Assembly (NCBI GenBank): GCA_043758205.1
Contig: JAYVNY010000191.1
Coordinates: 21,581 to 85,580, forward strand
Source: Akkermansia sp.
Lineage (GTDB): Bacteria; Verrucomicrobiota; Verrucomicrobiia; Limisphaerales; SIBH01
Length of the DNA: 64,000 nucleotides
Direction of reading: 5' to 3'
Made by a program: the position numbers and the translations under genes
Notes under the pieces: model-generated
The model's database searches: none
Told to the model about the DNA's origin: nothing
What the model saw: only the letters and a program-made list of their open reading frames with translations
Shown here: positions 16,506 through 38,350 of the stretch, one piece after another
How the letters are laid out: every line of letters begins with the position of its first letter
Numbering within the stretch: the first letter of the stretch is position 1

Positions 16506-16631
16506 GACTTGCTGCGTGCGACTTCATGAGTATCCCCGCGCGCAGCTGGCCGCTCCACTTGGGTGGGGCGGCCATCACGCTTGAACAAGACGCAACCAAC
16601 GATCGACCGCACCAAAGCTAAAACTGTCACT

Positions 16632-18932: not shown

Positions 18933-19093
18933 TTCGCGAGCACACACGCCTGCACGCGCATCGTTCAACGCAGCCGCGCTTTTCCGTGAATATTGTGTTT
19001 TTCACTCCAGTGCCGGTATAACGCGATATGCGCCAAACCCGTGAGCGTTTGCTTTCTGTTCGGACCGGCGCGTCATGGCCGTGCGCCAGATCG

Positions 19094-19216
19094 TCATTTC
19101 ATTGGCCACGGCTGAAGGGCGACGAGTGATGAGGCGCAGATCGTCAGGAGGGCAATGACCACGAAACGCGACCTCTGGCGCCGGGCATATCCAATCAGTT
19201 TCCGGTAGGCATGCAT
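19094..19216 (-). pseudogene. Relic of an ABC-exporter N-terminus (40 codons, then stop)
   Basis: My translation is MHAYRKLIGYARRQRSRFVVIALLTICASSLVALQPWPMK*. It aligns with MRRALKLLPYAGRQRSRFIFIAFLTVCASSLVALQPWPMKLLVDH, the start of the 4952..6715 product. The similarity ends at the stop. Confidence 0.6.
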
Positions 19217-19353
19217 TCGCTGGGGCGCACCATTACACACAGCAACCAGCCGAAACAACATCAGGTGGTTCGTTCATTGCACTACGCTGCTGGTAACGAA
19301 AACGCCTCCCATGTTTGAGAGGCGCGGAACTATCGAAAAATCTGCGGCGTGAA

Positions 19354-20568
19354 TTACAACCCGGCAGCGTCAACGAGCGGCTCTGCATAACCATCGAAAT
19401 CGCCAGAGAATCCGCCGCGCGTTCGCCCGGTCGCGTCCTGCCAGCAGGCGACGGGAGACTGCGCCGTGCCAGTCGCTTGCAGCACCGACTTCACCTGGGC
19501 GGGGCTGAGCGAAGGATTGGAGATAACCAATTGTGCCGCCGCGCCAGCCACGTGTGGAGAAGCCATGCTTGTTCCGCTGAGCGTGGCATATCCGCCGTCC
19601 TTGTAAGTCGAATAGATGTTCACCCCGGGCGCCGCAATCGCGACCACAGAACCGTAGTTGCTGAAGGTAGCGAACGTGTCATCGCCGCCGTAGTAGGTGC
19701 CTGCACCCGCACCGCCACAACTGCCATCCGTGTCCGCAATGGCGGAGACGGCAATGACCTTGGGATGCTTCGCCGGGCTGAAGGTGCCGGCGTCCGCAGC
19801 GCTGTTGCCCGCCGCGACCACGTAAACGACACCTGAATCAACCGACTTGGAAAGGGCGCTGTCGAGGGTGGAACTGGTGCCAGAAAAACCGAGGCTCATG
19901 TTGGCGACCCGGATGCCTTTGACGGCCGCGTTTTTGGTCACCCAATCAATTCCAGAAACCACGGCTGAAAGAGCACCGCTGCCGCTCTTGTCGAGAACTT
20001 TGACCGCGTACAACCGTGCATTCGGGGCGACTCCGCGAATGCCAGCGCCGTTGATCTTGGCCGCCACGATGCCTGACACATGACTACCGTGCCCATTGTC
20101 GTCATTGCCTGACCGGACTCCGCGCACATAAGAAACGCTGCCGGCCACGTTCAAATCCGGATGGGTGAGTGAAATGCCCGTGTCAATAATCGCCACGCCC
20201 ATCGCAGAAGAGTCGGTGCGGGGATTGAGATTGGCACCGATCCGCGCCACGCCGAGGGGAACAGCGTCGCCGGTCGTCGCGCTGGCGACGCTCGTCTGCG
20301 CGGCGGTCTGGCCGATGCTGACCGTAATGTCCTGCTCAATGAGCAGTACGTCTGGATCGCGTTGCAGTGCATTGAGTCGGGCGGCGGGAATCATGCCGGC
20401 AAATCCATTCACGGCTGCGGTGTAAACGTGCTCGGCAGCGATGCCGTGACGATTGGCGACGGCAACTGGATTTGCCTGGGCCCGCACTTGCACGATGAAC
20501 GATCCTGGAATGGGAGCCGCGAGGAGGCTTCCGGCCATGAACGAGATTAACAGTATGTATTTTTTCAT
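19354..20568 (-). CDS. Secreted subtilisin-like serine protease (S8 + I9), paralog of 15258..16505
   Basis: ATG at 20568 (MKKYILLISFMAGSLLA). Triad: VAIIDTGI, GHGSHVSG, SGTSMASPHVAG. Most aligned positions are identical to the plus-strand paralog by eye, but synonymous sites differ. Confidence 0.95.
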   Translation of the reverse strand: MKKYILLISFMAGSLLAAPIPGSFIVQVRAQANPVAVANRHGIAAEHVYTAAVNGFAGMIPAARLNALQRDPDVLLIEQDITVSIGQTAAQTSVASATTGDAVPLGVARIGANLNPRTDSSAMGVAIIDTGISLTHPDLNVAGSVSYVRGVRSGNDDNGHGSHVSGIVAAKINGAGIRGVAPNARLYAVKVLDKSGSGALSAVVSGIDWVTKNAAVKGIRVANMSLGFSGTSSTLDSALSKSVDSGVVYVVAAGNSAADAGTFSPAKHPKVIAVSAIADTDGSCGGAGAGTYYGGDDTFATFSNYGSVVAIAAPGVNIYSTYKDGGYATLSGTSMASPHVAGAAAQLVISNPSLSPAQVKSVLQATGTAQSPVACWQDATGRTRGGFSGDFDGYAEPLVDAAGL

Positions 20569-20704
20569 AATGGGATTGTCGGTCGCGGAAAATAGCATGG
20601 CAGATGCCTCGCCACAACACGCTTGGAGAACAAATCCCGTGCCGCGAATTCAGACAATGGTGTCTCACGGCAGTCCAATTTCAGCACACGACGGTCAAAC
20701 AATT

Positions 20705-22459
20705 TCACTGCGTCAACACCCGGTAAAAACGTTGGGTGGCCGAGTTGACGATGTCCGTGACGGACAGAGTTCCACCATTGCCGACAACGTTCGTGAACGT
20801 CTGCCACGCCAATGGACTGAGCGACGGCGTGAATTGCGCGGCGTAGCTGTAAGATGGCTGGCTCTGGAATGAGAACGTGAACGTGTTGGCGGCCTGCCCT
20901 GGATTGTAGAGTTGAACGGGCAAACCCAGAGGGGGCGGGCCTTGCAACGTCGCGGCCGCGAGAGTCACGTTTCCGTAATCAACATCGAAAAGATTTTGAA
21001 TCGTCCAGCGAATGTGAAGGCGTTGTCCGGCGGAAGCCGCCGCGTAGTTCAGTGTGTAAATCACGTAGGAGTTTCCGAACACGTTGCTGAGGGTCAAATC
21101 GGTGAAGGCGCGTCCGCTGAAGTCGCTGAGCCAGGCCTGAAAATTTCCCTGCGCGCCGTAGAGGCCGGCGTAGATGCGCAACGTGCGCGAGTTCGTGTCG
21201 GCGGGAACCCTGAACTCGAAGCCATTCGTCAAGCCCGTGATGTAAACGCCCAGGTTGCTGTTATTCACGCTGCTGACCGGCGTGCCATCGCTCCACGAAA
21301 AGGCGGTGCGGTTGTCGGTGAAGCGAATCACTGCGTTCGTGCCGAGGCGGGAGAAGTCGGTGATCTGCGTGCCACCCGTTGCTTTGTGATTGAAGTTACT
21401 CGCGTTCAACAATCCCCGATGCGCCCAGTCCGACGTGCCTTCAGTGGTGAGATTCAAGGCCGTAGGCGCGGCGGTACGGCTGCCCGCGAGAGAGCCGCCG
21501 CTGCCCGCCACGAAGAGTGTCACCGGCGCGGACACGCCCGCGCCCGCCAGAGTGTCGATGGCGCGCGCCGTGATGATGTGCCGCCCGGGCGGCGGATTGG
21601 TCCAGACCAACGAATACGCCGGGCCGACCGAATCGCCGAGTTTCGTGACGCCCGCGTAGAATTCGACCAGCGTCACCGAGCCATCGCTGTCACTGGCATT
21701 GGCGGTCAGCGTGATGTTGGTGGGCGCAACGACGCTGGTGCCCTCCGGCGGCGAAGTGATGGTTACGAACGGCAGGTTGTTCGCACCGGGCGCCGTGAGC
21801 GCCGCCGACTGCAGCGTCACGTTCCCATCGGCCCGATACGCCGTTTGCAGCGTGTAAATGATGTCGAGGGTTTGATTGGTCGAATTCGCGGCAAAGTTAA
21901 GGGTGTAAAAAGCGCTCGGGCCATTTACGAGGTTGTTGACGGACGCGTTGGCGCTGTTGGTGTAGCCGTTGGCGCTGTTGTCGCTGAGGGTCGCGACGAA
22001 CCTGCCCCGCGCTGCGTATGCGCCTACGTAAACGCGCAACGTTTGCATGTTGGTGCGGGCCGGGACGTTGAGACGAAAACCAGAGCCGATGTTCGGAGTG
22101 CCGTAAGCCCACACGCCCGTCGTCGTATTCGTCACCGCCATGTGCGGCCCGCCATCACTCCAGGTGTAGCCATTCGCGTTGTCGGCGTATTGGTAGATGT
22201 AAACGTAGCCGTTGCTCGCATCGACGGGTGTGAAGTCGCTGATCTGGGGCGTGACACCGGCTTTGCGATCAAGGCTTGTTTCCGTGAACAACCCCCAATG
22301 CACCCAGTCGAGCACGCCGTTGGTGGTGAGGTTGACGACGGAGCCGGCCGGAATGGAATTGAAAGTCGCGGTCAAAGTTCCCGCGCGACCAGTCAGGGCC
22401 AGCATCGAGATGACGCAGACCAGCGAAGTGGGGAACCACCGAAACAAATTCATGCTCAT
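20705..22459 (-). CDS. Large secreted protein: SP - domain A - Ig-like - domain A - C-terminal FYRV module
   Basis: 584 aa starting MSMNLFRWFPTSLVCVISMLALTGRA. It has the same domain-A signatures as 16632..18932, one Ig-like unit, and ends ...ATQRFYRVLTQ. Confidence 0.85.
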   Translation of the reverse strand: MSMNLFRWFPTSLVCVISMLALTGRAGTLTATFNSIPAGSVVNLTTNGVLDWVHWGLFTETSLDRKAGVTPQISDFTPVDASNGYVYIYQYADNANGYTWSDGGPHMAVTNTTTGVWAYGTPNIGSGFRLNVPARTNMQTLRVYVGAYAARGRFVATLSDNSANGYTNSANASVNNLVNGPSAFYTLNFAANSTNQTLDIIYTLQTAYRADGNVTLQSAALTAPGANNLPFVTITSPPEGTSVVAPTNITLTANASDSDGSVTLVEFYAGVTKLGDSVGPAYSLVWTNPPPGRHIITARAIDTLAGAGVSAPVTLFVAGSGGSLAGSRTAAPTALNLTTEGTSDWAHRGLLNASNFNHKATGGTQITDFSRLGTNAVIRFTDNRTAFSWSDGTPVSSVNNSNLGVYITGLTNGFEFRVPADTNSRTLRIYAGLYGAQGNFQAWLSDFSGRAFTDLTLSNVFGNSYVIYTLNYAAASAGQRLHIRWTIQNLFDVDYGNVTLAAATLQGPPPLGLPVQLYNPGQAANTFTFSFQSQPSYSYAAQFTPSLSPLAWQTFTNVVGNGGTLSVTDIVNSATQRFYRVLTQ

Positions 22460-22483
22460 ACGTTATGGCCCTCCCGGACCAAT

Positions 22484-24814
22484 TCAAAATTGCGGCAGAG
22501 ATTGAGCGCCCGCGCGGAAGAACCTTTGGGCCGCGGGCGAGGTGCGATTAGTGATCGTCACGAGCGTGCCGTCCCCGCTGAAGTTCGTCAGAAACTGCCA
22601 GTTGATGGGGGAGAGGGAATCTGTGAATTCGACCGTGTAGGTCGTGGCGGCTCTGGTTTCGAAGGAAAAAACAAAATCTTCGCCGACAATTCGCGGATTA
22701 AAAATGACAGCCGCAGAGGGTGTATTGCTGACCACGGTGATGCTGATGGGGCTGGAGGTTGTGGACGCGCCACGATTGTCGGTGGCGAGGGCGGTCAAAC
22801 TGTAAGTGCCGACCGAGAGGTTGCTGACCGTGAAGTTGAATGGAGCAGCCGCATCAACCCCCAACACGGTTGTTCCCGCATAAAATTCCACGCTCGACAC
22901 CGTCCCGTCGGAATCTGATGCAGACGCCGCAATCGTAAATGTGGCCGGCGCGCTGAAAATTGCGTGGTTAATCGGACTGTTCATCGTGACCGTCGGCAGG
23001 GCGTTCACCGTAATGGTGATCGAATTCGTGGTCTTCGCTCCCTGATTGTCCGTGGCCACGGACGAAAACGCGTAGGTTCCGTCGGCAAGATTGCTGACCG
23101 TCACAGCGTACGGACTCGTCGTGTCAGCACCAACCGATACAGCTCCGTTGAAGAACTCCACTTGCGTCACGCTGCCGTCGCTATCGGATGCAGTCGCTTC
23201 CAGCGTAAACGTGGCCGGAGCGGTGAGGACCGCGTTGTTCACGGGATTGGTGATGCTGACGACGGGCGGCACGTTGGTCGCCGTCAGCGCTCCAAGCTGA
23301 AGGGTCGCGGCCTGGAGCGTCACGTTGCCGTAAGTGAAATCGTACGCGTTTCCGATGGTCTGCCGCACGATGAGCCGCTGTCCCGGTGAAGCCGCCGCGT
23401 AATCGATCGTGTAAACCACGTAGCGGTTCCCGAACACGTTGCTCAGGGAAGTATCCGTGAAGGCTCGGCCGCTGAAATCAGTGAGGAACGCTTCGAAGTT
23501 GGCCTGTGCTCCGTACAGGCCCGTGTAAACCTTGAGCGTCCGCAGGCGGGTGTCTGCTGGAGCACTGATCTCAAAGCCGTTGGCGGCACCCGTCACGAAG
23601 AGGCCGGTCGTGGAACCGTTCGTCGTCGCGAGGGGAACGCCATCCGACCATGAGAACGCTGTGTAATTGTTATCGTACCGCGTAACTACATTGCTGCCGA
23701 TGAGCGTGAAGTTGGAAATCTGCCCATTGCCCGTGGACTTGTGATCGAAGCTGGAGGCAGTCAGCGCGCCCCAGTGCGCCCAGTCTGAAGTCCCTTCCGC
23801 AGTGAGATTGACGGCCGCCGGCGAATTGCTGCGGGTGCCGGATAGCGCACCGCCTGGTCCGCCGACGAAGACGGTGACCCGCGAGGAAATCCCCACGCCG
23901 CCGGCATTGTCGATCGCGCGTGCGGTGAGCACGTAGGAGCCGGGCTGTGGATTTGTCCAGACGATAGAGTAGGGCGCACTCGTGGCTTGGCCGATCTTGT
24001 TCGAAGCAGCAAAGAACTCGACCGCGCTGACGGTCCCGTCGGCATCACCCGCCGTGGCGCTCAACACGATCATATTCGTTGGAGAAAAACTCGCCCGGTC
24101 CTCAGGATTGGTGAGAGCCACGAAGGGAAGATTGTTCAACCCCGGGGTGCTCAGAGCCGCCGCTTGCAAAGTCACATTGCCACCCCCGCCGCTGCCGCGC
24201 AGCCGTGCCAACGTGTAAAAAACGGTCAACGTCTGCCCCGGTGAATTGGCCGCGAAATTAAGGGTGTAAACGGCGCTCGGTCCATTGCCGTTGTTGTCCA
24301 CCGCCGTGCTGTTGGTGTAATTGGGCGCGCTGGCATCACTGAGAAAGGCCACGAACTTGCCCTGCGCGGCAAAAGCGCCCACATACACTTTGAGCGTCTG
24401 AACATTGGTGCTTGCCGGAACGCTAAAACGAAAACCTGTGTCCGCCGCCGGCACGCCGTAGGCCCACACCCCCGTCGTTGTATTCGTCACCGCCAGGTGC
24501 GGTGTGCCATCAGTCCAAGTGTAACCGTTGGCATTGTCCGCGAACTGGTAAATGTAAACGTAGCCACCGCTCGCAGCGACCGGTGTGAAATTGCTGATGC
24601 GCGGCGCCACATTGACTTTGCGGTCGATACTCGTGTCGGTGAGCAGGCCCCAATGAACCCAGTCGGCGGAGCCGGCCACCGTCAAATTCACTGCGGAGCC
24701 AGCGGGGATGGAATTGAATGTTGAGGTCAAAGTGCCCGCGCGACTGCTCAACGTTGAAATCGAAACGCCGCAGGCCAGCAAAATGGAAAACCGAAAAAGC
24801 CGATACATTTCCAA
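22484..24814 (-). CDS. Large secreted protein: SP - domain A - Ig-like - domain A - Ig-like x2 - C-terminal module
   Basis: 776 aa with a TTG start in the track. The ATG at 24808 (MYRLFRFSILLACGVSISTLSSRA) is more likely. The architecture is collinear with 16632..18932. It ends ...AAQRFFRAGAQSLPQF. Confidence 0.85.
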   Translation of the reverse strand: MEMYRLFRFSILLACGVSISTLSSRAGTLTSTFNSIPAGSAVNLTVAGSADWVHWGLLTDTSIDRKVNVAPRISNFTPVAASGGYVYIYQFADNANGYTWTDGTPHLAVTNTTTGVWAYGVPAADTGFRFSVPASTNVQTLKVYVGAFAAQGKFVAFLSDASAPNYTNSTAVDNNGNGPSAVYTLNFAANSPGQTLTVFYTLARLRGSGGGGNVTLQAAALSTPGLNNLPFVALTNPEDRASFSPTNMIVLSATAGDADGTVSAVEFFAASNKIGQATSAPYSIVWTNPQPGSYVLTARAIDNAGGVGISSRVTVFVGGPGGALSGTRSNSPAAVNLTAEGTSDWAHWGALTASSFDHKSTGNGQISNFTLIGSNVVTRYDNNYTAFSWSDGVPLATTNGSTTGLFVTGAANGFEISAPADTRLRTLKVYTGLYGAQANFEAFLTDFSGRAFTDTSLSNVFGNRYVVYTIDYAAASPGQRLIVRQTIGNAYDFTYGNVTLQAATLQLGALTATNVPPVVSITNPVNNAVLTAPATFTLEATASDSDGSVTQVEFFNGAVSVGADTTSPYAVTVSNLADGTYAFSSVATDNQGAKTTNSITITVNALPTVTMNSPINHAIFSAPATFTIAASASDSDGTVSSVEFYAGTTVLGVDAAAPFNFTVSNLSVGTYSLTALATDNRGASTTSSPISITVVSNTPSAAVIFNPRIVGEDFVFSFETRAATTYTVEFTDSLSPINWQFLTNFSGDGTLVTITNRTSPAAQRFFRAGAQSLPQF

Positions 24815-24818
24815 AACC

Positions 24819-25550
24819 TTATGGCACGGCAGGAACAGCGCTCACATGCCCGTCAAAATAAAGCCGGTTCCAAATCTTACCGTGGACTGGCCGGTCGGGC
24901 AGATCGTCATACCAGCTCGGCACGATGTTGATGCTCACCTTGTCCGCATCCTCGATGGCCCAACTCTCTGCCGCGGAAGCGAACTGGGTCATCTCGGAAA
25001 GTTTCATCGGCTTCTCGGCCGGGCCAGGTGGGCTGGGATAACCAAATGGCCGGGCGGTGCCCGCACCGGGATCCACGTCCCAGTTCAACAGGTAAATCTT
25101 ACGCCCGGTCACGCCGCCGGAGGCGCCGGGCGCGGACTTCACGTAGCCGGGGCAAATCATCACGTTCGCGGTTCGCATCTTCGTGTCCGGAGGGGGATAT
25201 CCGAGGTATGGAGCGAGGAAGAAGGCCAGTTCCCGGCTCTGGTTCCGATCATAGTTCGGCTGCGCACCACCGAGACAGGGACCCGGGAGACGCTCCTCTT
25301 CATCCTCATCGGCGTAAAGTTGAAGGCCGATGCCCAACTGCTTCAGGTTCGAGAGGCATACCGTCTGGTGAGCCTTCGACTTGGCGCGCGCCAGTGCCGG
25401 CAAGAGCAGGCTGGCAAGAATGGCGATAATGGCGATGACGACCAGCAATTCGATAAGCGTGAACGCGTTACCGGCTGAACTTCGGTGACTTGATGCTGCA
25501 ACGGGTAGTTTCATGGCGCGCCCACTTTCGAGCACCGTCTTTTTTATCAT
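24819..25550 (-). CDS. Prepilin-type N-terminal cleavage/methylation domain protein (DUF1559 / H-X9-DG-like), paralog of 6777..7517
   Basis: [30 protein letters not shown] ... [14 protein letters not shown]. It is collinear with the 6777..7517 product over the full length. The alternative ATG at 25514 is possible. Confidence 0.9.
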
Positions 25551-25664: not shown

Positions 25665-26036
25665 ATGAGTTTTCGTCGCGAAAGAGTGTTACTGATCGGA
25701 CTCGCCGCCGTGCTGTTTCTGTGCGCTTTGATGACGGTGCGACAGGTTCTCGAAAACCAGTCGCATCACGCCGAGGTGCGCGAGGCGTTCATCCTGTCCC
25801 ACCACAAAGGGAACAACGCCGACGCACAGCGGCTTTACGACCGGCTGAAGTATGACCTTCCCGAAGAACCAACCCGGCATCTGATCGATGATTTGGAGCG
25901 CACGGCAGTCCTAGCGCCGACGAACCAGTCGCCGTCCTCCAATCTGCTGGTGCGCTATCATCTCTCCGTGCAGCACGAAGTGCAAAAACGCGTGGAGCAA
26001 AAATACCTGAAGCCCAAAACGGAGAACGGTTCCTGA
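25665..26036 (+). CDS. Hypothetical single-pass membrane protein
   Basis: ATG at 25665 (MSFRRERVLLIGLAAVLFLCALMTV...). It ends 2 nt before the next gene. No family recognised. Confidence 0.45.
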   Translation: MSFRRERVLLIGLAAVLFLCALMTVRQVLENQSHHAEVREAFILSHHKGNNADAQRLYDRLKYDLPEEPTRHLIDDLERTAVLAPTNQSPSSNLLVRYHLSVQHEVQKRVEQKYLKPKTENGS

Positions 26037-26038
26037 AC

Positions 26039-28564
26039 ATGGCTCCTGGCCAACAGCCCGCGCGTGTTGCAGTCGATGGAAAATTTTTCCGTCTCGGCCA
26101 CGAAAAGTTCATTCCCAAAGGAGTGACCTACGGTCCATTTGCCCCCAACGGCAGCGGCGAAACCTTTGGCACACCCGAACAGGCGGCAAAGGACTTCGCA
26201 CAAATCCGGGAACTGAACGCCAACGTCCTCCGGGTTTATTACGTCCCGCCGCTTTGGTTTCTCGATCTCGCGGAACAGCATGGGCTGAAGGTGTTCGTGG
26301 ACATCCCATGGGAAAAGCATCGTTGCTTCCTCGAAACTTATGAAATGAGGGAGGCCGCGCGAGAGAGCGTCCGGGCCGCGGCCCGCGCCTGCGCAGGACA
26401 TCCGGCGCTCTTTGCCTTCAGCGTGGCGAATGAAATTCCCGCAGAGATTGTGCGCTGGCATGGGGCCAGCGAAGCCGCCGAATTCATAGACCATCTGGTT
26501 TCCGAAGTGAAAGCCATTGACGCGGGCGCGCTCTGCACCTTCGCCTCGTTTCCGCCGACGGAGTTCCTCCAGCCCAAAGCCATAGATTTTGTCACCTTCA
26601 ACGTTTACCTCCATGAGCGGGGCGCGTTTGAAAGCTACCTCGCGCGCCTGCAAACGATGGCGAACGACAAGCCCCTGGTCCTCGGCGAATTCGGAGCCGA
26701 CTCGCACCGCGAAACAGAATCGCGCAAATGCGAGATGCTGCGCTGGCAAATCGAAGCCGCCTTTCGCTGCGGCCTCGCCGGCACGGTGCTCTTCTCCTTT
26801 ACGGATGAGTGGTTTCGCGGCGGACAGCAGATTACGGATTGGACCTTTGGCCTCACGACCGGCGAGCGCACGCCCAAGCCGTCGTTTGCTGCCGTGCGCG
26901 ATGCTTATGGGATCGCGCCCTATTTTCCGCTCGCCCGCGCGCCAAAGGTTTCCGTGGTCGTGGCGAGTTACAACGGAGCCGTGACGTTGCGCACCTGCCT
27001 GCAATCGCTCATCCGGCTGAATTATCCGGATTACGAAGTCATCCTGGTTGATGATGGGTCAACCGACACGACGCCGCAGATCGCTGCGGAGTTTCCAACC
27101 GTGCGCAACATCCGGCAAAACAACTTGGGTCTTTCGGCCGCGCGCAATACCGGCATCGCCGCCGCGACGGGAGAGATCGTGGCCTTCACGGACTCGGACT
27201 GCCGAGCGGACGAAGATTGGCTTTACTACCTCGTCAACGAGTTTCTCCGTTCGGACTTTGTCGGAGTGGGTGGTCACAACTTCCTGCCGCCCGAGGATTC
27301 GGCTGTCGCCGCAGCCGTGCTGGTCTCGCCCGGCGGTCCCGCGCATGTGATGTTGAGCGACCGTGAAGCCGAACACGTTCCCGGCTGCAACATGGCGTTC
27401 TACAAGTGGGCGCTGGACCAGATAAAAGGTTTCGATCCCTTGTATCGCAAGGCGGGCGATGACGTGGACCTTTGTTGGCGCTTGCAGGAGCTGGGTTACA
27501 AAATCGGTTTCGCGGCCAGCGCCTTTGTGTGGCACTACCGCCGATCTACGGTGAAGGCCTACCTGAAACAACAGGCCGGCTACGGCGAAGCCGAGGCGCT
27601 GTTGCAGCAGAAACATCCTGAGTATTTCAATGTGCTCGGCAGCGGGGTCTGGCGCGGGCGCATCTACGGGGCCGGGCTTCCGGGCATCGTGCTTCAGCGG
27701 GCCGTCATTTACCACGGCGTCTTCGGCAGCGGTTTTTTCCAGAAGCTTTACGCGCGCGAACCCTCATTTGCGCTGATGGTTTTCACGTCGTTGCAATTCT
27801 ACGCTTTCGTCACACTGCCGCTTCTGTTCCTGGCCAGTTGGTGGATCGGTTTCCTGCCGGTGGCATTTCTCGCACTGGGACTGTCAGTGGGTGTGTCTGT
27901 CGTGGCCGGAATGCAAGCCTCGCTTCCCGCCGACCGGACCCGGGTGTGGTCGCGGGCGCTCGTGGCGCTGATGTTTTTCCTGCAACCATTGGTGCGCGGC
28001 TGGGCGCGTTACAAACGCCACCTTCTGGTGGCGCAACCGAAAAGGTCGCCGGGGCATTTTGAAACTGCGGCGACGACGTTCACAAATCCGTTCTGCTTCT
28101 GGTCCCGCGGCACCGAGCGCTACGCTTTCATCGAGGCTGTTCAGCTCGAACTGGCGCCAAGCGGATGGGAACACCGCATTGATTCAGGCTGGGATGAGTT
28201 CGATGTGGAAATCACCACAAACCGCTGGAGCACGGCCCGACTCACGACGGTTCACGAGGAACTGGCGGCAGGACGCCGGTTTTTCCGCTGCCGCCTCGAC
28301 ACCCGATCATCTTGGACAAGCTGGTTGCTGATCACCCTGTTGGCACTCGCCAGTTCATTCGCCGTCCTCCTGTTCCGCGAACAACTGCCTTACGTTTGGT
28401 TCGCCCTCGCCCTCGTGCCGATGGCGCTCCTGTTCGTGGCCACGGAGGAACGTGACCAGAGCGAAGCGATCGCCGCCTTGGTCGCCACGGCAGCCCGCCG
28501 ACTTGGATTTGAGGATTGGCACGGCGAACCTTCGCAACACCCGGCCAGCATCACGGCTTCCTGA
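26039..28564 (+). CDS. Fusion protein: clan GH-A-like TIM-barrel glycosidase + GT2 glycosyltransferase + C-terminal multi-TM domain
   Basis: The N-terminus has FSVANEIP (NE acid/base-like) and LVLGEFGADS (nucleophile-like). The middle is KVSVVVASYNG...YEVILVDDGSTD...AFTDSDC...GDDVDLCWRL (GT2). The C-terminus has ~5 hydrophobic segments. Confidence 0.85.
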   Translation: MAPGQQPARVAVDGKFFRLGHEKFIPKGVTYGPFAPNGSGETFGTPEQAAKDFAQIRELNANVLRVYYVPPLWFLDLAEQHGLKVFVDIPWEKHRCFLETYEMREAARESVRAAARACAGHPALFAFSVANEIPAEIVRWHGASEAAEFIDHLVSEVKAIDAGALCTFASFPPTEFLQPKAIDFVTFNVYLHERGAFESYLARLQTMANDKPLVLGEFGADSHRETESRKCEMLRWQIEAAFRCGLAGTVLFSFTDEWFRGGQQITDWTFGLTTGERTPKPSFAAVRDAYGIAPYFPLARAPKVSVVVASYNGAVTLRTCLQSLIRLNYPDYEVILVDDGSTDTTPQIAAEFPTVRNIRQNNLGLSAARNTGIAAATGEIVAFTDSDCRADEDWLYYLVNEFLRSDFVGVGGHNFLPPEDSAVAAAVLVSPGGPAHVMLSDREAEHVPGCNMAFYKWALDQIKGFDPLYRKAGDDVDLCWRLQELGYKIGFAASAFVWHYRRSTVKAYLKQQAGYGEAEALLQQKHPEYFNVLGSGVWRGRIYGAGLPGIVLQRAVIYHGVFGSGFFQKLYAREPSFALMVFTSLQFYAFVTLPLLFLASWWIGFLPVAFLALGLSVGVSVVAGMQASLPADRTRVWSRALVALMFFLQPLVRGWARYKRHLLVAQPKRSPGHFETAATTFTNPFCFWSRGTERYAFIEAVQLELAPSGWEHRIDSGWDEFDVEITTNRWSTARLTTVHEELAAGRRFFRCRLDTRSSWTSWLLITLLALASSFAVLLFREQLPYVWFALALVPMALLFVATEERDQSEAIAALVATAARRLGFEDWHGEPSQHPASITAS

Positions 28565-28695: not shown

Positions 28696-29285
28696 AACAA
28701 CCCAAGCAAACGAAAATACAAACGCTACGGTCATCTTCGAGCGCAAGGCGTACGTCGAAAAAGTGTTTTCGGCGCTCGGCGCTCTCAAGCTGCGCTACTG
28801 GATTCACGAGGGCTTGAAGCTGCACAGCCGGGAAATTCGCCAATAGATCGGGCCATTCACGTTCTTGCATCACCCGGAGAAGCGATCCCGCTTCATTGCG
28901 TGCGTGAGCGGATTGATTACCGCCATCCCCTTCACGCTGATGGTGTCAGCGGTGCGCAAGCAGGAGCATCGTGATCGCTACGGAGCGGAGGCCATGAATC
29001 GTTACGACCTGGCCCTCGAATCCGTGATGGATCGCGTCCATCATTTCCTGCGGCTCGAAAACGAGACGGGCCTTCCTCTCGTCGCGGAAGCGCGCGGGCG
29101 GAACGAGGACAGGGCTTTGGAAAATGTCTTCCTGCGGATTCTCTTCTCGGGTACGCGGACCCTGGGCCGTGAGAAGTTTCAGGATTTGACCTGCCCGCTG
29201 GTGTTTCGTTCCAAGCGCGACAACATCGCGGGCATCCAGGTCGCCGACTTGTGCGCGTATCCGTGCGCGCGGCATGTTCTGGAGT
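28696..29285 (+). pseudogene. DUF3800-like gene remnant (N-terminus missing, in-frame TAG, 3' end cut)
   Basis: The frame reads ...VIFERKAYVEKVFSALGALKLRYWIHEGLKLHSREIRQ*IGPFTFLHHPEKRSRF...SKRDNIAGIQVADLCAYPCARHVL. The TAG is at 28844-28846. Similarity stops at ~29285, where the antisense integrase fragment begins. Confidence 0.5.
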
Positions 29286-29591
29286 GTAGAGGTCGTTCAT
29301 GGCTTGGGAGGAATGGCCGGTCAGCTTCATGCGGATTTCCCCGGCCATGCCGGCATTCGCCAGTGCGGAATTAAAACTGTGCCGGAGGGAATGGAAGGTC
29401 CGCTTGGAGAACAGATGCGTCCCTTTGCCGGCGACGGTCATGGGATCAAGGCCCGCCCTCATGACGATGCGTTTGAAGCCCTCGCTCAGTCCGTGATTGC
29501 CTCCCAGCCCATTGTTCGCAAGGGCAGGGCCGAGGAACCCCTCGGTCCCGAATTGGGAGAGACCCGCGAAGCCCATCGGCACGCTGCTCAA
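29286..29591 (-). pseudogene. Tyrosine recombinase (phage integrase family) C-terminal fragment
   Basis: GLSEGFKRIVMRAGL...RTFHSLRHSFNSALANAGMAGEIRMKLTGHSSQAMNDLYT carries the HxxR, GH and Tyr catalytic-box pattern. The N-terminal ~2/3 is absent, and the sequence after the Tyr is antisense DUF3800. Confidence 0.65.
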
Positions 29592-29900
29592 CGCGAGGGC
29601 GACAGCGCCTGGCCATCAACCCTGCTGCACGGCGCGCTGCGGATGCGCTGATACAGCCAGGCCTTGGCAAAGATCCAAGGCCGTTGCACGCTCTTTTCGG
29701 AAATGTCCAGAGATGCGGCGATTTCGGCGTCTTGCATGCCCATGAAGAATTTCATCTTCACAATTTGCGCTCGCACCGGATCCTCGGCCTGCAATTCCTC
29801 CAGGGCTTCGTTCTCGGCCGGCAGCTTGTCATCCCCCACTTCCACGGCCTGCTCGACGAGGATGTCGGACTGGATTTCCCATTGAGAAGCTTGGAGGAAT
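29588..29900 (-). pseudogene. ECF sigma factor fragment (region 4 only)
   Basis: ENEALEELQAEDPVRAQIVKMKFFMGMQDAEIAASLDISEKSVQRPWIFAKAWLYQRI matches the sigma-4 / TIGR02999-style C-terminus. No credible region 2 lies upstream. Confidence 0.5.
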
Positions 29901-30188
29901 TCACCAATTCTTGGCGTGTAAGAGTAGAATTTGACAAAGCGACCGGGCCTCCGCACCGTCACACCTAAGTTCGGGATTCGGGTCTCACGATAACCGCAGT
30001 CGTGTGTGAACATCGCGCTGCTCAACAACCGGCCAAGTATTTCAAGAAAATCAAGCAAGCGCAGAAGACCCCTGAGAAGAAGCAAGCAGGTTCACTTCTG
30101 GGCGGCAGCGTCGCGGGTGCGCTGCCGCCGTCCCGCTGTCTTCACCTTCAGTGTAATTGGGCGCGACCCTCTGCGTCAGCTTGGTTGA

Positions 30189-30734
30189 ATGAGCATGATT
30201 GAAAAGCATCTGTTGCAACACCTGAACGAGTTCACGGGGTTCGCCCGCAAGCGGCTGGCCGACCCGGAACTCGCCGACGATGCCGTGCAGGAGAGCCTGC
30301 TCAAAGCGTTGAAGGCGTCCGGCACCATGCGCGACACGGAGAACGCGAAGGCGTGGTTCTACCGCATCCTGCGGCGCACCATCATCGACCTGTATCGCCG
30401 CCGCGATGTGCAGAAGCGGGCCGTGGCCCGGATGGAACGCGAACTGGATTCACCGCCGACGCCGGACGAAGAGCGCGTGACGTGCGGCTGTCTTGAGAAG
30501 CTGATTCCGACCTTGAAGCCTGAATACTCAACGCTCGTGCGTCGGCTCGACTTGAATGGCGAGGCGTTGGAACCGGTCGCCGCGAGCCTCGGCATCACGA
30601 CAAACAATTTGAAAGTCCGGCTGCATCGCGCCCGCAGGCAGTTGAAGGAGCGCGTCACTCAAACCTGTCGCGTGTGCGCGAAGCACGGCTGCCTCGATTG
30701 CACCTGCGACACAATTTCCGAACGAAAGGACTGA
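30189..30734 (+). CDS. ECF sigma factor with Cys-rich C-terminal tail (CorE-like, putative metal-responsive)
   Basis: Region 2 DDAVQESLLKAL..WFYRILRRTIIDLYRRR. Region 4 ASLGITTNNLKVRLHRARRQLKE. Linker CGC (VTCGCLEK). Tail TQTCRVCAKHGCLDCTCD. The gene ends 3 nt before the copper ATPase. Confidence 0.85.
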   Translation: MSMIEKHLLQHLNEFTGFARKRLADPELADDAVQESLLKALKASGTMRDTENAKAWFYRILRRTIIDLYRRRDVQKRAVARMERELDSPPTPDEERVTCGCLEKLIPTLKPEYSTLVRRLDLNGEALEPVAASLGITTNNLKVRLHRARRQLKERVTQTCRVCAKHGCLDCTCDTISERKD

Positions 30735-30737
30735 CTT

Positions 30738-33275
30738 ATGGCCAAAGACCCCATCTGCGGAATGACGGTGGACGAGTCTTCACCGCTGCGTGCCGAGCGC
30801 GACGGGCAGACGTTTTACTTTTGCAGCGAGCACTGCCGACAGAAGTTCGTCGGGCAGACGCGGGCTGGGAAAACGATTCCGCTCACTCCGACCGACACAG
30901 GCGGCTGCTGCGGTGGTACGAAAACCAAACCCGTGACAGGCTCCAACGATTGCTGCGGCGGCAAGCAAGAGCCAACGCAGCACGAACCCGCCGCGCACGA
31001 ACATTCACAGCACGGGCCCGCAGCAGTGAAGCCGTCCGCTGCCGCGAAATACTTCTGCCCGATGTGTCCCGGCGTGGAGTCGGACACGCCGGGTGATTGT
31101 CCGAAGTGTGGCATGGCGCTGGAAAGGAATCCGGCGTGGGTTGACCCCGTAGCGGGCAAGGTCATCTACACCTGCCCGATGCACCCCGAAGTGCAACAAG
31201 ACCATCCCGGCGACTGTCCGAAGTGTGGGATGGCCTTGGAACCGAAAACCATTTCGGCGGCACCCGAAGAAGAGAATCCCGAACTCACCGATATGACGCG
31301 CCGGTTCTGGATTGGCGCGGCGCTCACGTTCCCCGTGTTCGTGATCGCGATGGCGCACATGATTCCGGCGCTACGTCATCAAGACTGGTTGATGAGTGAT
31401 GCCTCGCGGTGGATTCAGTTTGTGTTCTCAACTCCGGTTGTGGCGTGGGCGGGCTGGCCGTTTTTCAAACGCGGTTGGCGTTCCATCGTCCACCGCAGCC
31501 TGAACATGTTCACGCTCATCGCCATTGGCGTCGGCACGGCCTACGTGTTCAGCGCCGTGGCGGTGCTGGCCCCCGGTTTGTTCCCGCCATCGTTCGCGCA
31601 TGGCGGCAAGGTCGGCCTCTACTTCGAGGCGGCGGCGGTGATTATCGTGCTCGTGCTGCTCGGCCAGATGCTCGAACTGCGGGCGCGGAGTAAAACCGGC
31701 AACGCTCTTCGCGCACTCTTGAATCTCGCGCCGACGAAAGCGCGGGTCGTTTTCGGCGGCGACGAAATCGACACGCCCTTGGAACAAGTGCGCGTGGGTC
31801 AACAACTTCGCGTGCGCCCCGGCGAAAAGATTCCGGTCGATGGCGTCGTGCTCGATGGAAAAACTTCCATCGACGAGTCGATGATTACTGGTGAACCGAT
31901 TCCAGTGGAGAAAAGTGTCGGCGACAAAGTGACCGGCAGCACGCTCAACACGACGGGCAGCATTCTCGTGCAAGCCGAGCGCGTCGGCAGCGACACCGTG
32001 CTCGCCCGCATCGTGCAGATGGTCGGCGAAGCGCAACGCAGCCGCGCCCCGATTCAGGCGTTGGCCGACAAAGTGGCCGGATGGTTCGTGCCCGCCGTGC
32101 TGGCGATTGCCGTGCTCACGTTCGTCGCCTGGTTCGTGTGGGGGCCGGAGCCTCGACTAGCCTACGCCATCGTCAATGCCGTCGCCGTGCTCATCATCGC
32201 CTGCCCGTGCGCCCTTGGACTGGCCACGCCCATGTCCGTGATGGTCGGCGTCGGGCGCGGCGCTCAGTCCGGTGTGCTGATACGCAATGCCGAGGCCATC
32301 GAGATGATGGAGAAGGTGAACACCGTGGTTGTGGACAAGACCGGCACGCTCACCGAAGGCAAGCCGCGCCTCACGCAAGTTCTCCCGGTCAACGGCGTGC
32401 GCGAAGATGAACTGTTGCTGGCCGCTGCTTCGGTTGAACAGCGCAGTGAACACCCACTGGCGTCTGCGATTGTTCTGGGCGCGAAGGAGCGCGGTGTGAA
32501 GGCGCAGCCCGTCGTTGATTTTCAGTCCATCACTGGCGGCGGAGTAGTCGCCAAGTTGGGCAACAAGGAAATCGCGGTGGGCAAACTCAAATTCTTGCAA
32601 GAGCGCGGCGTGACCGGACTGGAAACCGTCGAGCAGCAAGCGAGCGTGTTTCAAGCCGAAGGACAGACCGCGATGTTCGTCGCCATCAACGGCCAGCCTG
32701 CGGGTGTCATCGTCGTCGCCGACCCCATCAAGAAGTCCACGCCGGAAGCCATCGAACAACTGCACCGGCTCGGTTTGAAAATCATCATGCTCACCGGCGA
32801 CAACGAGCGCACCGCCCGCGCCGTCGCGCAGAAACTCGGCATTGACGAAGTGGAAGCGGGTGTTGAACCGGCGCGAAAGCACGAGCGCATCCAACAACTC
32901 CGGCAGCAGGGCCGCATCGTGGCGATGGCCGGTGATGGCATCAACGACGCGCCAGCACTCGCCGCCGCGCATGTCGGCATCGCAATGGGCACCGGCACTG
33001 ATGTCGCAATGGAGAGCGCGGGCATCACGCTCGTCCAAGGCGACCTGCGGGCCATCGCGAAGGCCATCACGCTCAGTCGTTCGATGATGCGAAACATCCG
33101 GCAGAATCTTTTCTTCGCTTTCATCTACAACGCGCTTGGCATTCCGCTCGCCGCCGGTGCGCTCTACCCGTTCTTCGGCGTGCTGCTCAGTCCCATCATC
33201 GCAGGTGCGGCGATGAGCCTGAGTTCCGTCTCGGTCATCTCGAACGCGCTGCGGCTACGGCGGGTGAATCTGTAG
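30738..33275 (+). CDS. copA: Copper-translocating P1B-type ATPase with YHS/TRASH and two Cys4 metal-binding N-terminal modules
   Basis: DPICGMTVD...[12 protein letters not shown] (YHS/TRASH). [23 protein letters not shown] and [25 protein letters not shown]6 CPC ([12 protein letters not shown]), [17 protein letters not shown]. Confidence 0.95.
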
Positions 33276-33656: not shown

Positions 33657-34679
33657 ATGAAAGCCAATCAAGCGAGCGGGACGAGCAAGCACCGACCCCG
33701 GCGGGGAGATGATTCTGGCGCGGGCGACGCTTGGTGCCAACTGCTGGGCCTAAACGACCAACTCCGCTTCGAACCGCATGACATCGCCGCGCAACTCGAC
33801 GCGCGCGGGCGCTACGATGTACCGCTCGACGAGGAATTTCCGCTGCTCATCAAACTCTTTCGCTACACCTCGCGGCGGCACACGCGCGGCGCGACGTGGC
33901 ACGAGCGGCTCGAGCTGTTTCTGCCGCTGGACGGCCCGGCGCGCTTCCGCATGGGCGAGCAGGAAGTCGAGTTGCAGGCGGGCGAACTGCTCGTGGTGGA
34001 CAATCTCAAGCTGCATCACGTCGTGGATTTTCCGGGCTTCGACACGCGCGTCATCGTCATCAGCTTTCTGCCGGAGTTCGTGTACAGTCTCGGCTCGCCG
34101 TCTCACGACTACGCCTTCCTGCTGCCGTTTTACTCGAAGGTCGAGCGGCGTCCGCATGTCGTGCGGAGCACCGACGCCGCGGCTCCGGAGGTGCATGGGG
34201 CACTGGTGCGATTGTTGCAATGTTACTTCGGCGGCGCGGCCAAACCGTTTTATGAGGCCGGCTCGAAGGCGTTTCTGCTCGAACTGCTCTACCATCTCGC
34301 CGCGCACTTCCGCGCCTCGGCGGTGGTGAAATGGGAATTCATGCGCCAGCAGGAACGGTCGTTGCGGCTCAAGAAACTTTTCGATCACATCAGCGCGCGC
34401 GCGGCGGAAAAACTCTCCGTCGGCGCGGCGGCGCGGCTCGTCGGGATGAGCGCGCCGCAATTCATGAAGACCTTCAAGCAGGTCGCGGGCATGACGCTCG
34501 TCGCGTACCTGAATCACGTCCGCCTCGCCCGCGCCGCGCGCCTGCTGCGCGAGACGAATCGCTCCATCGCCGACATCGCCGACGCGACGGGCTTCTCCGA
34601 CCAGAGCTATTTCGACAAGCGGTTCAAGCGGGCCTTCGGACTGACGCCGAAGACGTTTCGCGCGGAGGCCGTCCGGTAA
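33657..34679 (+). CDS. AraC-family transcriptional regulator (cupin-like N-domain + HTH)
   Basis: C-terminal AraC HTH: LSVGAAARLVGMSAPQFMKTFKQVAGMTLVAYLNHVRLARAARLLRETNRSIADIADATGFSDQSYFDKRFKRAFGLTP. Confidence 0.9.
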   Translation: MKANQASGTSKHRPRRGDDSGAGDAWCQLLGLNDQLRFEPHDIAAQLDARGRYDVPLDEEFPLLIKLFRYTSRRHTRGATWHERLELFLPLDGPARFRMGEQEVELQAGELLVVDNLKLHHVVDFPGFDTRVIVISFLPEFVYSLGSPSHDYAFLLPFYSKVERRPHVVRSTDAAAPEVHGALVRLLQCYFGGAAKPFYEAGSKAFLLELLYHLAAHFRASAVVKWEFMRQQERSLRLKKLFDHISARAAEKLSVGAAARLVGMSAPQFMKTFKQVAGMTLVAYLNHVRLARAARLLRETNRSIADIADATGFSDQSYFDKRFKRAFGLTPKTFRAEAVR

Positions 34680-34746
34680 ATTTCGTCCAACATTTCACGC
34701 GGCCTTGTCCTAGTCGTGCAGTCAGGCTTCAGCCAGTTTCGCCGGC

Positions 34747-36165
34747 ATGAACCCGTTTCGCATCGCCATCGTGCTCGCCTTGGGCTGCCTCATCGCCGCC
34801 GCCGCGCCTCTGCCGCGCCTCAAGGTCTCCGCCAATCGTCGCTTTCTTGTCACCGCCGACGGCCAGCCGTTCTTCTATCTGGGCGACACGACGTGGGAAC
34901 TCTTTCATCGCCTGAATCGTGAGGAGGCGATCCAGCTGTTCGAGAATCGCGCGGCGCGAAAGTTCAACGTGCTCCAGTCCGTCGCCATCGCGGAACTCGA
35001 AGGCCACACCGATCCGAACGCCTACGGCCATCGGCCGTTCGTCGATCTCGACGTGACCAAGCCGGACGTGAAGGACGGCCCGGCCAATGATTACTGGGAC
35101 CATGTGGACTTCATCGTGCGCGAGGCGAACGCGCGCGGACTCTACATCGGCTTCCTGCCGACGTGGGGCCGCTTCTGGCATGACACGAATCAGGGTCGCA
35201 AACCGCTCTTCACCGTCGCCAACGCCGAGACCTACGGCGAGTGGCTCGGCCAACGATACAAGGACGCGGGCCTAATCTGGATTCTCGGCGGCGACCGGGG
35301 CGTGGACAACGACGAGCAGAAAGAAATCATCCGTGCGATGGCGAAGGGCTTGCGCAAGGGCGACGGCGGCAATCATCTGATCACACTTCATCCGAACGGC
35401 GGTTCCGGCTCGTCGAAAACTTTCCACGACGACGCGTGGCTCGACTTCAACATGCGGCAGAACGGTCACGGCACCGAATTCACCGGGCGCTACGATCAGA
35501 CGCGCGCCGATTACGACCGCACGCCCGTCAAGCCGGTCCTTGATGGCGAGCCGATTTACGAAGATCATCCCGTGTCCTTCAATGCGAAGAGCCTCGGTCA
35601 CTCCATCGCCGCCGACGTGCGCCGTCCGCTCTATTGGGATTTGTTCGGCGGCGCCTTCGGCCACACCTACGGGCATCACTCGGTCTGGCAGATGTGGTCG
35701 CCGGGCAAGGGACCGATCAACAACCCGCTTCTGCCGTGGAGCGACGCCATCAACCAACCCGGCGCGGCGCAGATGCAGCATGGCCGCGCGCTCATGGAAT
35801 CGCGCCCGTTCCTCACCCGCATCCCGGACGACTCGGTGCTCGTCACGGACCTCGTGGCGACGAGCGTGCCCGGCACCGGCACGCGGCACTTCGCCGCCAC
35901 GCGCGACGAGTCGGGCAGCTACGCGATGGTCTATGCCCCGGTGGGGCGCGCGTTCAAAGTCCACATGGAGAAGATCACCGGCGCGCAGGTGAAGGCGTGG
36001 TGGTTCAATCCGCGCGACGGCTCGGCGAAACTTCTCGGCGAATTTCCGAACACGGGCGAACGCGAGTTTCTTTCCCCCGACAAGGGCGAGCACCTCGACT
36101 GGGTGCTGGTCCTGGATGACGCAGCGAAGAATTTTCCCGCGCCGGGCAAACTGCTCAAGCCATGA
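34747..36165 (+). CDS. Glycoside hydrolase family 140-like (DUF4038 + collagenase-binding-like C-domain)
   Basis: Signal peptide, then [37 protein letters not shown]...[11 protein letters not shown], which is characteristic of DUF4038/GH140 as I recall it. Confidence 0.8.
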
Positions 36166-36920: not shown

Positions 36921-37073
36921 AATCCATCCTTGTTGCTCTCACACTCACGTTCGCCGCGGCGCGAGCGCAAGAAGGTGGACGGAAAAGTTCGCATTACGCG
37001 CCAAGGCTCCAATGAACGGATTAGCGGAATGCTCGTCCAACTCGCCACCGATTGACCCAATTGACTCGCAACC

Positions 37074-38252: not shown

Positions 38253-38350
38253 TTGCTCAACAGAGGCAACGACCAACCGGGGCAAGTTGTAGGTTCATAG
38301 AAGACATCAAGAAGACTCAGATTCGCAGCCGGGATGCAAATACCTCAGAG

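Follow-up and report, generated by a model that had tools for sequence, protein, structure and literature searches.

A clan GH-A-like glycosidase domain fused to a GT2 glycosyltransferase in Verrucomicrobiota and other phyla: a predicted cytoplasm-facing enzyme that may make and remodel a glycan

Why should a bacterium join a glycosidase to a glycosyltransferase in one polypeptide and keep both in the cytoplasm, where the first would seem to undo the work of the second? The question is raised by a gene in a 64,000-nucleotide stretch of a verrucomicrobial genome (Akkermansia sp., GTDB lineage SIBH01; assembly GCA_043758205.1, contig JAYVNY010000191.1, positions 21,581 to 85,580), which as a whole is called the window here. 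The gene encodes an 841-residue protein with a clan GH-A-like glycoside hydrolase (GH) domain, a family GT2 glycosyltransferase (GT) domain and a membrane anchor. To our knowledge, glycosidase-glycosyltransferase fusions are rare, and the two studied cases, NdvB and Cgs, both make cyclic glucans. Cyclic glucans are linked to antibiotic tolerance in biofilms in the case of NdvB and to host interactions in the case of Cgs. The answer favored here, with the chances for and against evenly balanced, is a self-contained enzyme anchored in the inner membrane, whose two cytoplasm-facing catalytic domains would make a glycan and then remodel it before export. A cytoplasmic GH domain beside a GT2 domain would imply controlled transglycosylation, chain-length editing or primer release before that step.

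The gene is preceded by a small gene on the same strand. The parts of both are as follows, in window coordinates.

25665..26036, + strand: open reading frame (ORF) of a small membrane protein, 123 amino acids (aa), ATG to TGA stop, with one N-terminal hydrophobic segment
26039..28564, + strand: fusion ORF, whole and including the stop, 841 aa, ATG start; GH-A-like, GT2 and membrane-anchor parts
26063..26923, + strand: residues 9-295, N-terminal (beta/alpha)8 clan GH-A-like domain, predicted glycosidase or transglycosidase (Pfam, PDB profile, Foldseek, model)
26429..26434, + strand: N131-E132, predicted acid/base 'NE' motif (conservation; aligned to 'INE' of LaGH157, the GH157 enzyme of Labilibaculum antarcticum)
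26687..26689, + strand: E217, predicted catalytic nucleophile (conservation; aligned to E224 of LaGH157)
26936..27673, + strand: residues 300-545, GT2 domain of the GT-A fold (Pfam, NCBIfam, PDB profile, Foldseek)
27050..27067, + strand: D338-D343, DDGSTD nucleotide-binding motif, with D339 invariant (55/55)
27191..27199, + strand: D385-S-D387, DxD motif for metal and nucleotide sugar (D385 55/55, D387 54/55; both 78/78)
27455..27469, + strand: G473-D-D-V-D477, candidate catalytic-base motif, with LCWR next (D474, D475 and D477 55/55)
27530..27586, + strand: W498-H-Y-R-R502 to Q511-Q-A-G-Y-G516 (H499 54/55; Q511, Q512 and Y515 55/55)
27767..27919, + strand: first transmembrane (TM) hairpin, ~577-599 and ~604-627, with a 4-residue uncharged turn (hydropathy; model helices 585-599 and 603-626)
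27950..28027, + strand: residues 638-663, putative amphipathic interface helix with the LQPxxR motif (hydrophobic moment; R653 55/55)
28091..28309, + strand: residues 685-757, small alpha/beta insert between the hairpins (conservation; model predicted local distance difference test [pLDDT] ~80-90)
28313..28450, + strand: second TM hairpin, 759-779 and 784-804 (hydropathy; poorly conserved)

The fractions refer to two sets of relatives, a diverse set of 55 aligned members and a genome set of 78 full-length orthologues translated from genome loci. Translation at these coordinates confirms the motifs N131-E132, E217, DDGSTD, DSD and GDDVD(LCWR). The 2-nucleotide spacer between the genes is real, because the TGA of the small ORF, ending at 26036, is followed by 'AC' and then by the ATG at 26039. 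A first-pass annotation made from the letters of the window had described an 841-aa fusion of a GH-A barrel, a GT2 domain and a membrane part with a small single-pass membrane-protein gene 2 nucleotides upstream, and ORF coordinates, Pfam matches, motifs and hydropathy agree with this description. An exact-sequence lookup of the 841-aa protein finds no existing record, and a promoter and terminator scan finds no signal above shuffled background. The AlphaFold2 model of the full-length protein, built with the 55-sequence alignment, has a mean pLDDT of 89.8 and a predicted template modelling score (pTM) of 0.81. The pLDDT is 97-98 throughout the GH/GT2 junction, and the model therefore suggests that the two domains form a fixed unit.

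The fusion is the hallmark of a large family. A word-indexed search returns thousands of full-length relatives of ~840 aa with ~60% identity, the named ones belonging to the Verrucomicrobiota, and a HMMER scan of 50%-identity representatives finds 1,586 at E<=1e-30. Among the best 150 of these 1,586, most span the whole protein, down to ~34% identity. When a single genome from each GTDB species is scanned with a pattern, fusion loci are found in at least 598 species, and the phylogenetic spread, a point raised along with the first description, extends to three or more phyla. The best 80 of these loci come almost entirely from Verrucomicrobiota (Pedosphaera-like, Chthoniobacterales and Terrimicrobiaceae) and Planctomycetota (Tepidisphaerales and Phycisphaerae). 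A second large clade was reached through a 36%-identical representative, and its named members are Nitriliruptorales, Acidimicrobiales and Actinomycetota. This Actinomycetota clade, 35% identical, keeps all catalytic motifs intact. Database labels of the relatives read only 'glycosyltransferase' or 'O-antigen biosynthesis protein', and in the searchable literature we found no description of the GH/GT2 fusion family and no paper citing PDB entry 9FZ9, 9G4N or 9G5G, which are introduced below.

Conservation is centered on the two active sites. Within the diverse set, N131 and E132 are each retained in 53 of 55 members and E217 in 54, D339, D385, D474, D475, D477, Q511, Q512, Y515 and R653 are present in all 55, and D387 and H499 in 54. 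In the genome set both active sites are invariant, as are Q511, Q512, Y515 and R653 (78/78), so that the intact catalytic signatures noticed at first in one protein reflect strong purifying selection. Mean identity to the window protein, calculated over 77 orthologues, is 56% for the GH domain, 69% for the GT2 domain, 40% for the first hairpin with the interface helix, 36% for the alpha/beta insert and 14% for the last hairpin. With thousands of full-length homologues, catalytic retention in 78/78 orthologues and a confident model, the family is confirmed as a real, constrained one beyond chance.

Sequence comparison shows the N-terminal domain to be a barrel of clan GH-A in which both predicted catalytic glutamates are present. 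Pfam places the Glyco_hydro_2_C TIM barrel (PF02836) at residues 11-222 with 25.7 bits against a cut-off of 21, many homologues likewise carry a precomputed PF02836 match, and GH72 and GH5 match the same region below threshold. The sugar-binding (PF02837) and Ig-like (PF00703) domains of true GH2 enzymes give no Pfam match, and the barrel begins at residue 9. A profile of residues 6-296 from 26 members, compared with all PDB sequences, gives as top match the entries 9fz9, 9g4n and 9g5g (E 6e-23), a 537-residue 'GH2 catalytic domain-containing protein'. The Foldseek library names these entries as LaGH157, solved with laminaribiose and laminaritriose. GH157 is an endo-beta-1,3-glucanase family (PMC10229575). 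The next profile matches are GH2 beta-glucuronidases (E 1e-15 to 1e-9), the GH72 beta-1,3-glucanosyltransferases of the Gas type (E 3.5e-9) and GH158 (E 4e-7). GH17 shows no Pfam match at E<=0.1, and no enzyme so named is found among the 60 profile and 50 fold matches listed.

The fold comparison leads to the same relatives. The domain is modelled as an alternating strand/helix barrel with a pLDDT of ~90-98, and in a Foldseek search with the full model, laminaritriose-bound LaGH157 ranks first with an E value of 4e-15 and an identity of 17-18%. Barrel matches to GH157, GH2 and GH5 lie between E 1e-12 and 4e-15, and the GH2 enzymes nearly equal LaGH157 in fold score. In the alignment, the family motif 'GNEIP' falls over 'INEPQ' of LaGH157 and 'LGEFG' over 'TTEFG'; E217 thereby corresponds to E224, the residue mutated (E224A) in the laminaritriose-trapping structure 9g4n. 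The pair of catalytic glutamates expected of such a barrel is thus retained on alignment to a solved enzyme. The domain is predicted to be a retaining glycosidase or transglycosidase, with the NE motif as acid/base and E217 as nucleophile. It appears closest to beta-1,3-glucan enzymes, yet the distance is too great for an assignment to GH157 unless CAZy models support it.

The second domain is recognized by several Pfam GT2 models over residues 302-605: PF00535 (Glycos_transf_2) with 114 bits, PF13641 (Glyco_tranf_2_3) with 77.5 and PF13632 (Glyco_trans_2_3) with 44.5. The best NCBIfam model, at residues 300-538, is MftF (TIGR03965) with 164.6 bits, where the cut-off is 280. EpsD and PgaC-type models (PgaC_IcaA, 84.9 bits) come next, and none of these models reaches its cut-off. 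PDB profile matches are soluble or peripheral GT-A enzymes, namely the chondroitin polymerase K4CP, GalT1, heparosan synthase, TarP/TarS and ppGalNAc-transferases, and they are mostly limited to the first 100-115 residues of the domain. A separate model of residues 297-841 (pLDDT 83.8) leads in Foldseek to generic soluble GT-A enzymes; BcsA is present among the matches and aligns to this C-terminal model with a root mean square deviation (rmsd) of 27-30 A and a TM-score of 0.27-0.38. Plasmid-borne or annotated homologues are matched over the GT2 domain only, with coverage of at most 36%, and MftF is among the best of them.

The motif that typifies synthase-type GT2 enzymes, Q(Q/R)xRW, is replaced by an invariant QQxGYG with no R-W at that site in any of the 55 members. 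In the model, QQAGYG lies within helix 505-525. Because of this replacement, the domain is not assigned to the BcsA/NdvB-type synthases and is here called a putative member of an unnamed GT2 subfamily.

Hydropathy places the first hydrophobic segment at ~577-600, with nothing comparable ahead of it, and the others at ~605-629, ~758-783 and ~782-804. An N-terminal signal or TM segment is absent from all 55 members. The AlphaFold2 model contains helices at 585-599, 603-626, 638-663, 759-779 and 784-821, with a beta-alpha-beta-rich insert at 685-757. Throughout the family, the turn of the first hairpin consists of 4 uncharged residues and that of the last one of ~1 residue. Helix 638-663 is amphipathic, its hydrophobic moment being 1.22 and its mean hydropathy 0.31 in the window protein (family mean 0.23), and it contains, in LQPxxR, the residue R653 that is invariant in 55/55. 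Lysine and arginine residues average 4.2 in this helix across the family, 4.4 in the linker after it and 4.4 in the C-terminal tail. Positive charge is concentrated in the loops, linker and tail adjoining the soluble parts. The simplest reading is an arrangement of two TM hairpins with both termini in the cytoplasm, helix 638-663 at the membrane interface and all soluble parts on the cytoplasmic side. The 'about five TM segments' of the first-pass annotation are therefore better described as four TM helices and one interface helix, while its hydrophobic C-terminal part stands, being modelled as long helices.

This arrangement bears on the side of the membrane where each domain would lie. Since no TM segment or signal peptide precedes residue 577 and a GT2 enzyme needs cytoplasmic nucleotide sugars, the GH domain must, on this inferred topology, share the cytoplasm with the GT2 domain. 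It would therefore act before export rather than on polymer already extruded. Processing of the transferase product by the hydrolase remains the best reading, with its place of action moved to the cytoplasm. The membrane-embedded synthase with a translocation channel, proposed along with it, had to be abandoned, as QxxRW, TM helices N-terminal to the GT domain and likeness to the BcsA fold are all lacking. A BcsA-like channel is rejected on the grounds of motif, topology, fold match and conservation. The second hairpin, poorly conserved at 14%, is for that reason probably an anchor. The insert 685-757 carries the conserved residues W688, D715, G717-W718, D722 and E740, has no Pfam match and may be a regulatory or glycan-binding module.

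The neighborhood of the gene differs between the two clades. In the Actinomycetota clade, the stop codon of the fusion gene overlaps the start of an ATP-binding cassette (ABC) exporter gene with ABC_membrane and ABC_tran domains in 5/5 long contigs. Its product scores 419-453 bits with MsbA, 418-444 with a cyanophycin-associated ABC model and 368-403 with the glucan exporter model PRK13657, all under their cut-offs. Behind the exporter gene follow an unrelated ~820-aa GT2, a sulfotransferase-like protein and multi-domain GT4/GT2 proteins, and a UDP-glucose dehydrogenase, methyltransferase or pyruvyl transferase is sometimes found nearby. The adjoining exporter and glycosyltransferase genes support a product that is assembled at the cytoplasmic face and then leaves through an ABC exporter, for this clade at least. 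The ~820-aa GT2 was considered as a paralogue of the fusion and rejected, only the GT2 core being alignable (30% over 221 residues).

The conserved operon downstream of the fusion gene is located at ~10.4-18.5 kb in each of the five loci (L085-L089). The multi-GT4/GT2 proteins that it encodes are giant ones, and its Sulfotransfer_3-like protein has ~750 aa. The exporter of L085 is itself fused to a GT2 domain (1375 aa).

From these findings the following mechanism is proposed. An inverting GT-A-type GT2 domain, with DxD, GDD as candidate base and a C-terminal His/Arg cluster, would build a beta-linked oligo- or polysaccharide from a nucleotide sugar at the inner face of the inner membrane, with the acceptor held near the conserved interface helix (LQPxxR). 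The attached retaining GH-A domain would then cut or transfer the chain in the same compartment, the possible outcomes being chain-length control, primer release, branching or cyclization. A separate transporter would export the product, which would be the adjoining MsbA/ChvA-type ABC protein in Actinomycetota and an unlinked one in the verrucomicrobial clade. A beta-glucan is the most likely glycan, a choice held at somewhat less than even chance; it is proposed because the relatives of the N-terminal domain in GH157, GH72 and GH158 act on beta-1,3-glucan and the nearest named GT2, MftF, is a beta-1,4-oligoglucosyl enzyme. A more specific version, to be regarded as tentative and rather doubtful, is a new kind of one-protein machine that polymerizes and transglycosylates wholly at the cytoplasmic face, in which a GT2 without QxxRW makes a beta-glucan-like chain, the GH157-like retaining domain cyclizes it, branches it or frees it from its primer, and an MsbA/ChvA-type ABC transporter exports it.

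Several points weigh against this proposal. Beta-1,3-glucan specificity of the N-terminal domain is suggested only weakly, because the domain shares no more than 17-18% identity with GH157 and the fold scores of GH2 enzymes are nearly as good. The GT2 domain lies under every NCBIfam cut-off. Retaining GH-A enzymes may simply hydrolyze, and transglycosylation is assumed. In the Verrucomicrobia/Planctomycetes (PVC) clade, which includes the window, the gene is solitary with housekeeping neighbors, and no exporter or sugar-nucleotide gene is linked to it in the PVC-clade loci among the 80 genome loci compared. The Actinomycetota operons, owing to their several other GTs and the sulfotransferase-like protein, suggest that the product is not a plain glucan but a complex heteroglycan. 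The function of the family as a whole is a matter of inference.

The best-surviving alternative, though an unlikely one, is that the GT2 domain glycosylates a membrane lipid, a polyprenyl phosphate or a small molecule in the manner of MftF or of the DPMS/GtrB type, and that the GH domain removes or exchanges a sugar on this glycoconjugate. The combination of a GT-A domain, an interface helix and TM hairpins recalls the polyprenyl-phosphate glycosyltransferases. The interface helix, being basic and conserved, offers a possible binding site for a phosphate head group, exporters of the MsbA/PglK type flip lipid-linked glycans, and DPMS (5mlz) is a profile match at E 3.9e-15. The last match, however, covers only the nucleotide-binding part, DPMS and ArnC both being matched over these 100-115 residues alone. 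The best named relative, MftF, does decorate a small cofactor (PMC7491314), but the domain scores under the MftF cut-off and no mft genes lie nearby. The endo-acting relatives of the GH domain in GH157, GH72 and GH158, moreover, bind multi-sugar chains.

It is highly improbable that the N-terminal domain works independently, either as a cytoplasmic glycosidase for an unrelated substrate or as a non-catalytic glycan-binding or scaffold module. The lack of linked sugar-metabolism genes in the PVC clade and the close fold match to exo-glycosidases of the GH2 type would agree with such a role. The fusion is nevertheless a fixed feature of at least three phyla, whose proteins keep both active sites at 32-35% identity, the GH/GT2 junction is modelled at very high confidence, and a pseudo-enzyme would not retain NE and E in 78/78 orthologues.

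Equally improbable is an NdvB- or BcsA-like synthase whose C-terminal helices, perhaps in an oligomer, form a channel and whose hydrolase acts on the extruded polymer: a GH-GT2 fusion is known in NdvB (PMC10237404), synthase-type models (Glyco_tranf_2_3, Glyco_trans_2_3 and PgaC_IcaA) match the GT2 domain, GDDVD and QQxGYG occupy the positions of TED and QxxRW, and BcsA is among the Foldseek matches, but the alignment to BcsA is poor, QxxRW is not present, the GH domain cannot be periplasmic with neither a signal peptide nor a TM segment between it and the GT2 domain, the only four TM helices form two tight hairpins with none N-terminal to the GT and the last of them conserved at only 14%, and a self-translocating synthase would not need the dedicated ABC exporter that follows the gene in Actinomycetota.

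If the one-protein machine that polymerizes and transglycosylates is real, the family would found a GH(-like) family and a GT2 subfamily, both new, and would reveal that Verrucomicrobia, Planctomycetes and Actinomycetota have an unrecognized glycan in the envelope or periplasm. The family comprises thousands of sequences from abundant soil and freshwater phyla. Characterizing one member would give a function to a large unnamed family, would probably found new CAZy families or subfamilies and could reveal an envelope glycan of PVC bacteria and Acidimicrobiia. As a single gene encodes the enzyme, the target is a clean and testable one. No principle would be overturned.

The small gene upstream of the fusion belongs to the window's lineage. 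Its 123-aa product has a Kyte-Doolittle value of 2.47 in the hydrophobic segment, which would be an N-terminal TM segment or signal anchor followed by a helical soluble part, and gives no Pfam or NCBIfam match. Homologues directly upstream of the fusion gene are found only in L004 (5581-5955) and L005 (4598-4972), i.e., in 2/84 related loci, with identities of 41% and 34% in a three-way alignment and of 49% in the local BLASTP match to L004. The protein was therefore rejected as a family-wide partner, being detectable only in these two loci, and is a lineage-specific extra. An invariant Cys20 stands right after the hydrophobic segment (LFLC, LVFC and LVVC in the three proteins), and this context could be a non-canonical lipoprotein box instead of a plain signal anchor.

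A search for conserved partner genes in the 80 genome loci yields only housekeeping synteny. The recurrent neighbors are thyA (20 loci), a class-III aminotransferase (10), a TolC-like protein (9), DHFR (8) and Sua5 (6). A polysaccharide operon in the window was likewise considered and rejected, the neighbors being prepilin-like and Big_7 surface proteins, subtilases, an integrase fragment, extracytoplasmic function (ECF) sigma factors and a copper ATPase.

The remainder of the window holds several other gene groups. Two adjacent MsbA-type half-transporters with ABC_membrane and ABC_tran domains are encoded at 3138-4955 and 4952-6841 (both - strand), 19 kb from the fusion gene and adjoined by a prepilin-like N_methyl gene at 6777-7517. 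L004 has a similar ABC gene beside Big_7/N_methyl genes. The region 12912-25550 consists of repeated cassettes of large Big_7/PKD surface proteins (16563-18932, 20705-22459 and 22484-24814) with two subtilases carrying I9 propeptides (15156-16505, + strand; 19354-20598, - strand) and a prepilin-like N_methyl protein at 24819-25550. The same Big_7/N_methyl arrangement is found in L004, divergent from the fusion gene. The stretch 28865-30085, immediately behind that gene in the window, looks like the remains of mobile or regulatory genes in decay. It holds fragments of a tyrosine recombinase (C-terminal; 28932-29591, - strand) and, overlapping it, of DUF3800 (28865-29374, + strand), at most one of these two being real, as well as one of an ECF sigma factor (C-terminal; 29588-30085, - strand). 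At 30189-33275, an ECF sigma factor gene is followed after 3 nucleotides by that of a copper/heavy-metal P-type ATPase with YHS and HMBD metal-binding domains.

A plant-pectin-type degradation cluster occupies 33657-41540. It comprises an AraC regulator, an apiosidase-like GH with a collagen-binding-like domain (34747-36165; PF13204, 367 bits), a NIPSNAP protein, a GFO/IDH/MocA oxidoreductase, a GH28/pectate-lyase-like beta-helix protein and a weak GHL6 protein. Gene sets typical of Planctomycetes and Verrucomicrobia are located at 45827-48874 and 56697-63218, comprising a PSCyt1-WD40 protein (1015 aa), a PSCyt2/PSD1 protein (DUF1549/DUF1553) and three tandem DUF1501 sulfatase-like paralogues.

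Among known systems, NdvB of Pseudomonas ('Orphan', GH17-TM-GT2), a proposed cyclic beta-(1,3)-glucan synthase, carries a signal peptide and a GH17 domain in the periplasm, which a TM bundle separates from the GT2; this GT2 is BcsA-like, contains Q(Q/R)xRW and has a channel (PMC10237404). The window protein resembles it as a single polypeptide of ~850 aa from a stand-alone gene, in which a GH-A TIM barrel precedes a GT2 domain with membrane helices. The proposed logic is shared as well, the transferase making a chain that the GH domain cuts or cyclizes. In contrast to NdvB, the window protein has no signal peptide, intervening TM segment, GH17 domain, QxxRW or BcsA-like channel, and its N-terminal domain is GH157/GH2-like.

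Cgs is a second point of reference. The cyclic glucan made by this enzyme leaves the cell through a separate ABC transporter, the MsbA-like ChvA/NdvA, and this pairing with an exporter matches the gene pair of the Actinomycetota. The cytoplasmic GT with GH-type processing is a further likeness, since Cgs is membrane-anchored with its GT84, cyclase and GH94 domains all in the cytoplasm (PMC10901819). Cgs differs in being very large, its C-terminal GP domain starting only at residue 1536, and in its GT84, alpha/alpha cyclase and GH94 phosphorylase domains (PMC10901819). Neither GT84 nor GH94 is found in the fusion protein by Pfam, NCBIfam or PDB searches, and no sequence or fold relationship to Cgs was detected. 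By analogy, the fusion would be a functional counterpart of Cgs and NdvB and a member of neither group.

LaGH157 is the best match of residues 9-295 by profile and by fold, with NE and the nucleophile Glu aligned. The window domain is set apart from GH157 by its low identity, its predicted cytoplasmic location and its fusion to a GT2, whereas the GH157 enzyme BcellWH2_01931 is a predicted degradative enzyme of the cell surface with a further C-terminal part (PMC10229575). MftF, the best-scoring named GT2 family, is the mycofactocin oligoglucosyltransferase, which adds a short beta-1,4-glucan chain inside the cell (PMC7491314). It lacks a GH domain, and no alignment is obtained for its C-terminal part; there are no mft genes near the fusion gene in the window, where the neighbors are unrelated. 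The general theme of a glycan-forming GT2 accompanied by a glycosidase for the same polymer is shared with BcsA and BcsZ, but BcsZ is separate and periplasmic and BcsA forms its own channel, whereas in the window protein hydrolase and transferase form one polypeptide, would both lie in the cytoplasm and show no sign of a channel. Glycosidase-GT2 fusions such as NdvB and cytoplasmic machines combining a GT with GH-type processing such as Cgs are thus already known. What is new is the joining, with no TM segment between them, of a GH157/GH2-like barrel and an MftF-like GT2 that lacks QxxRW, held by an anchor of two hairpins.

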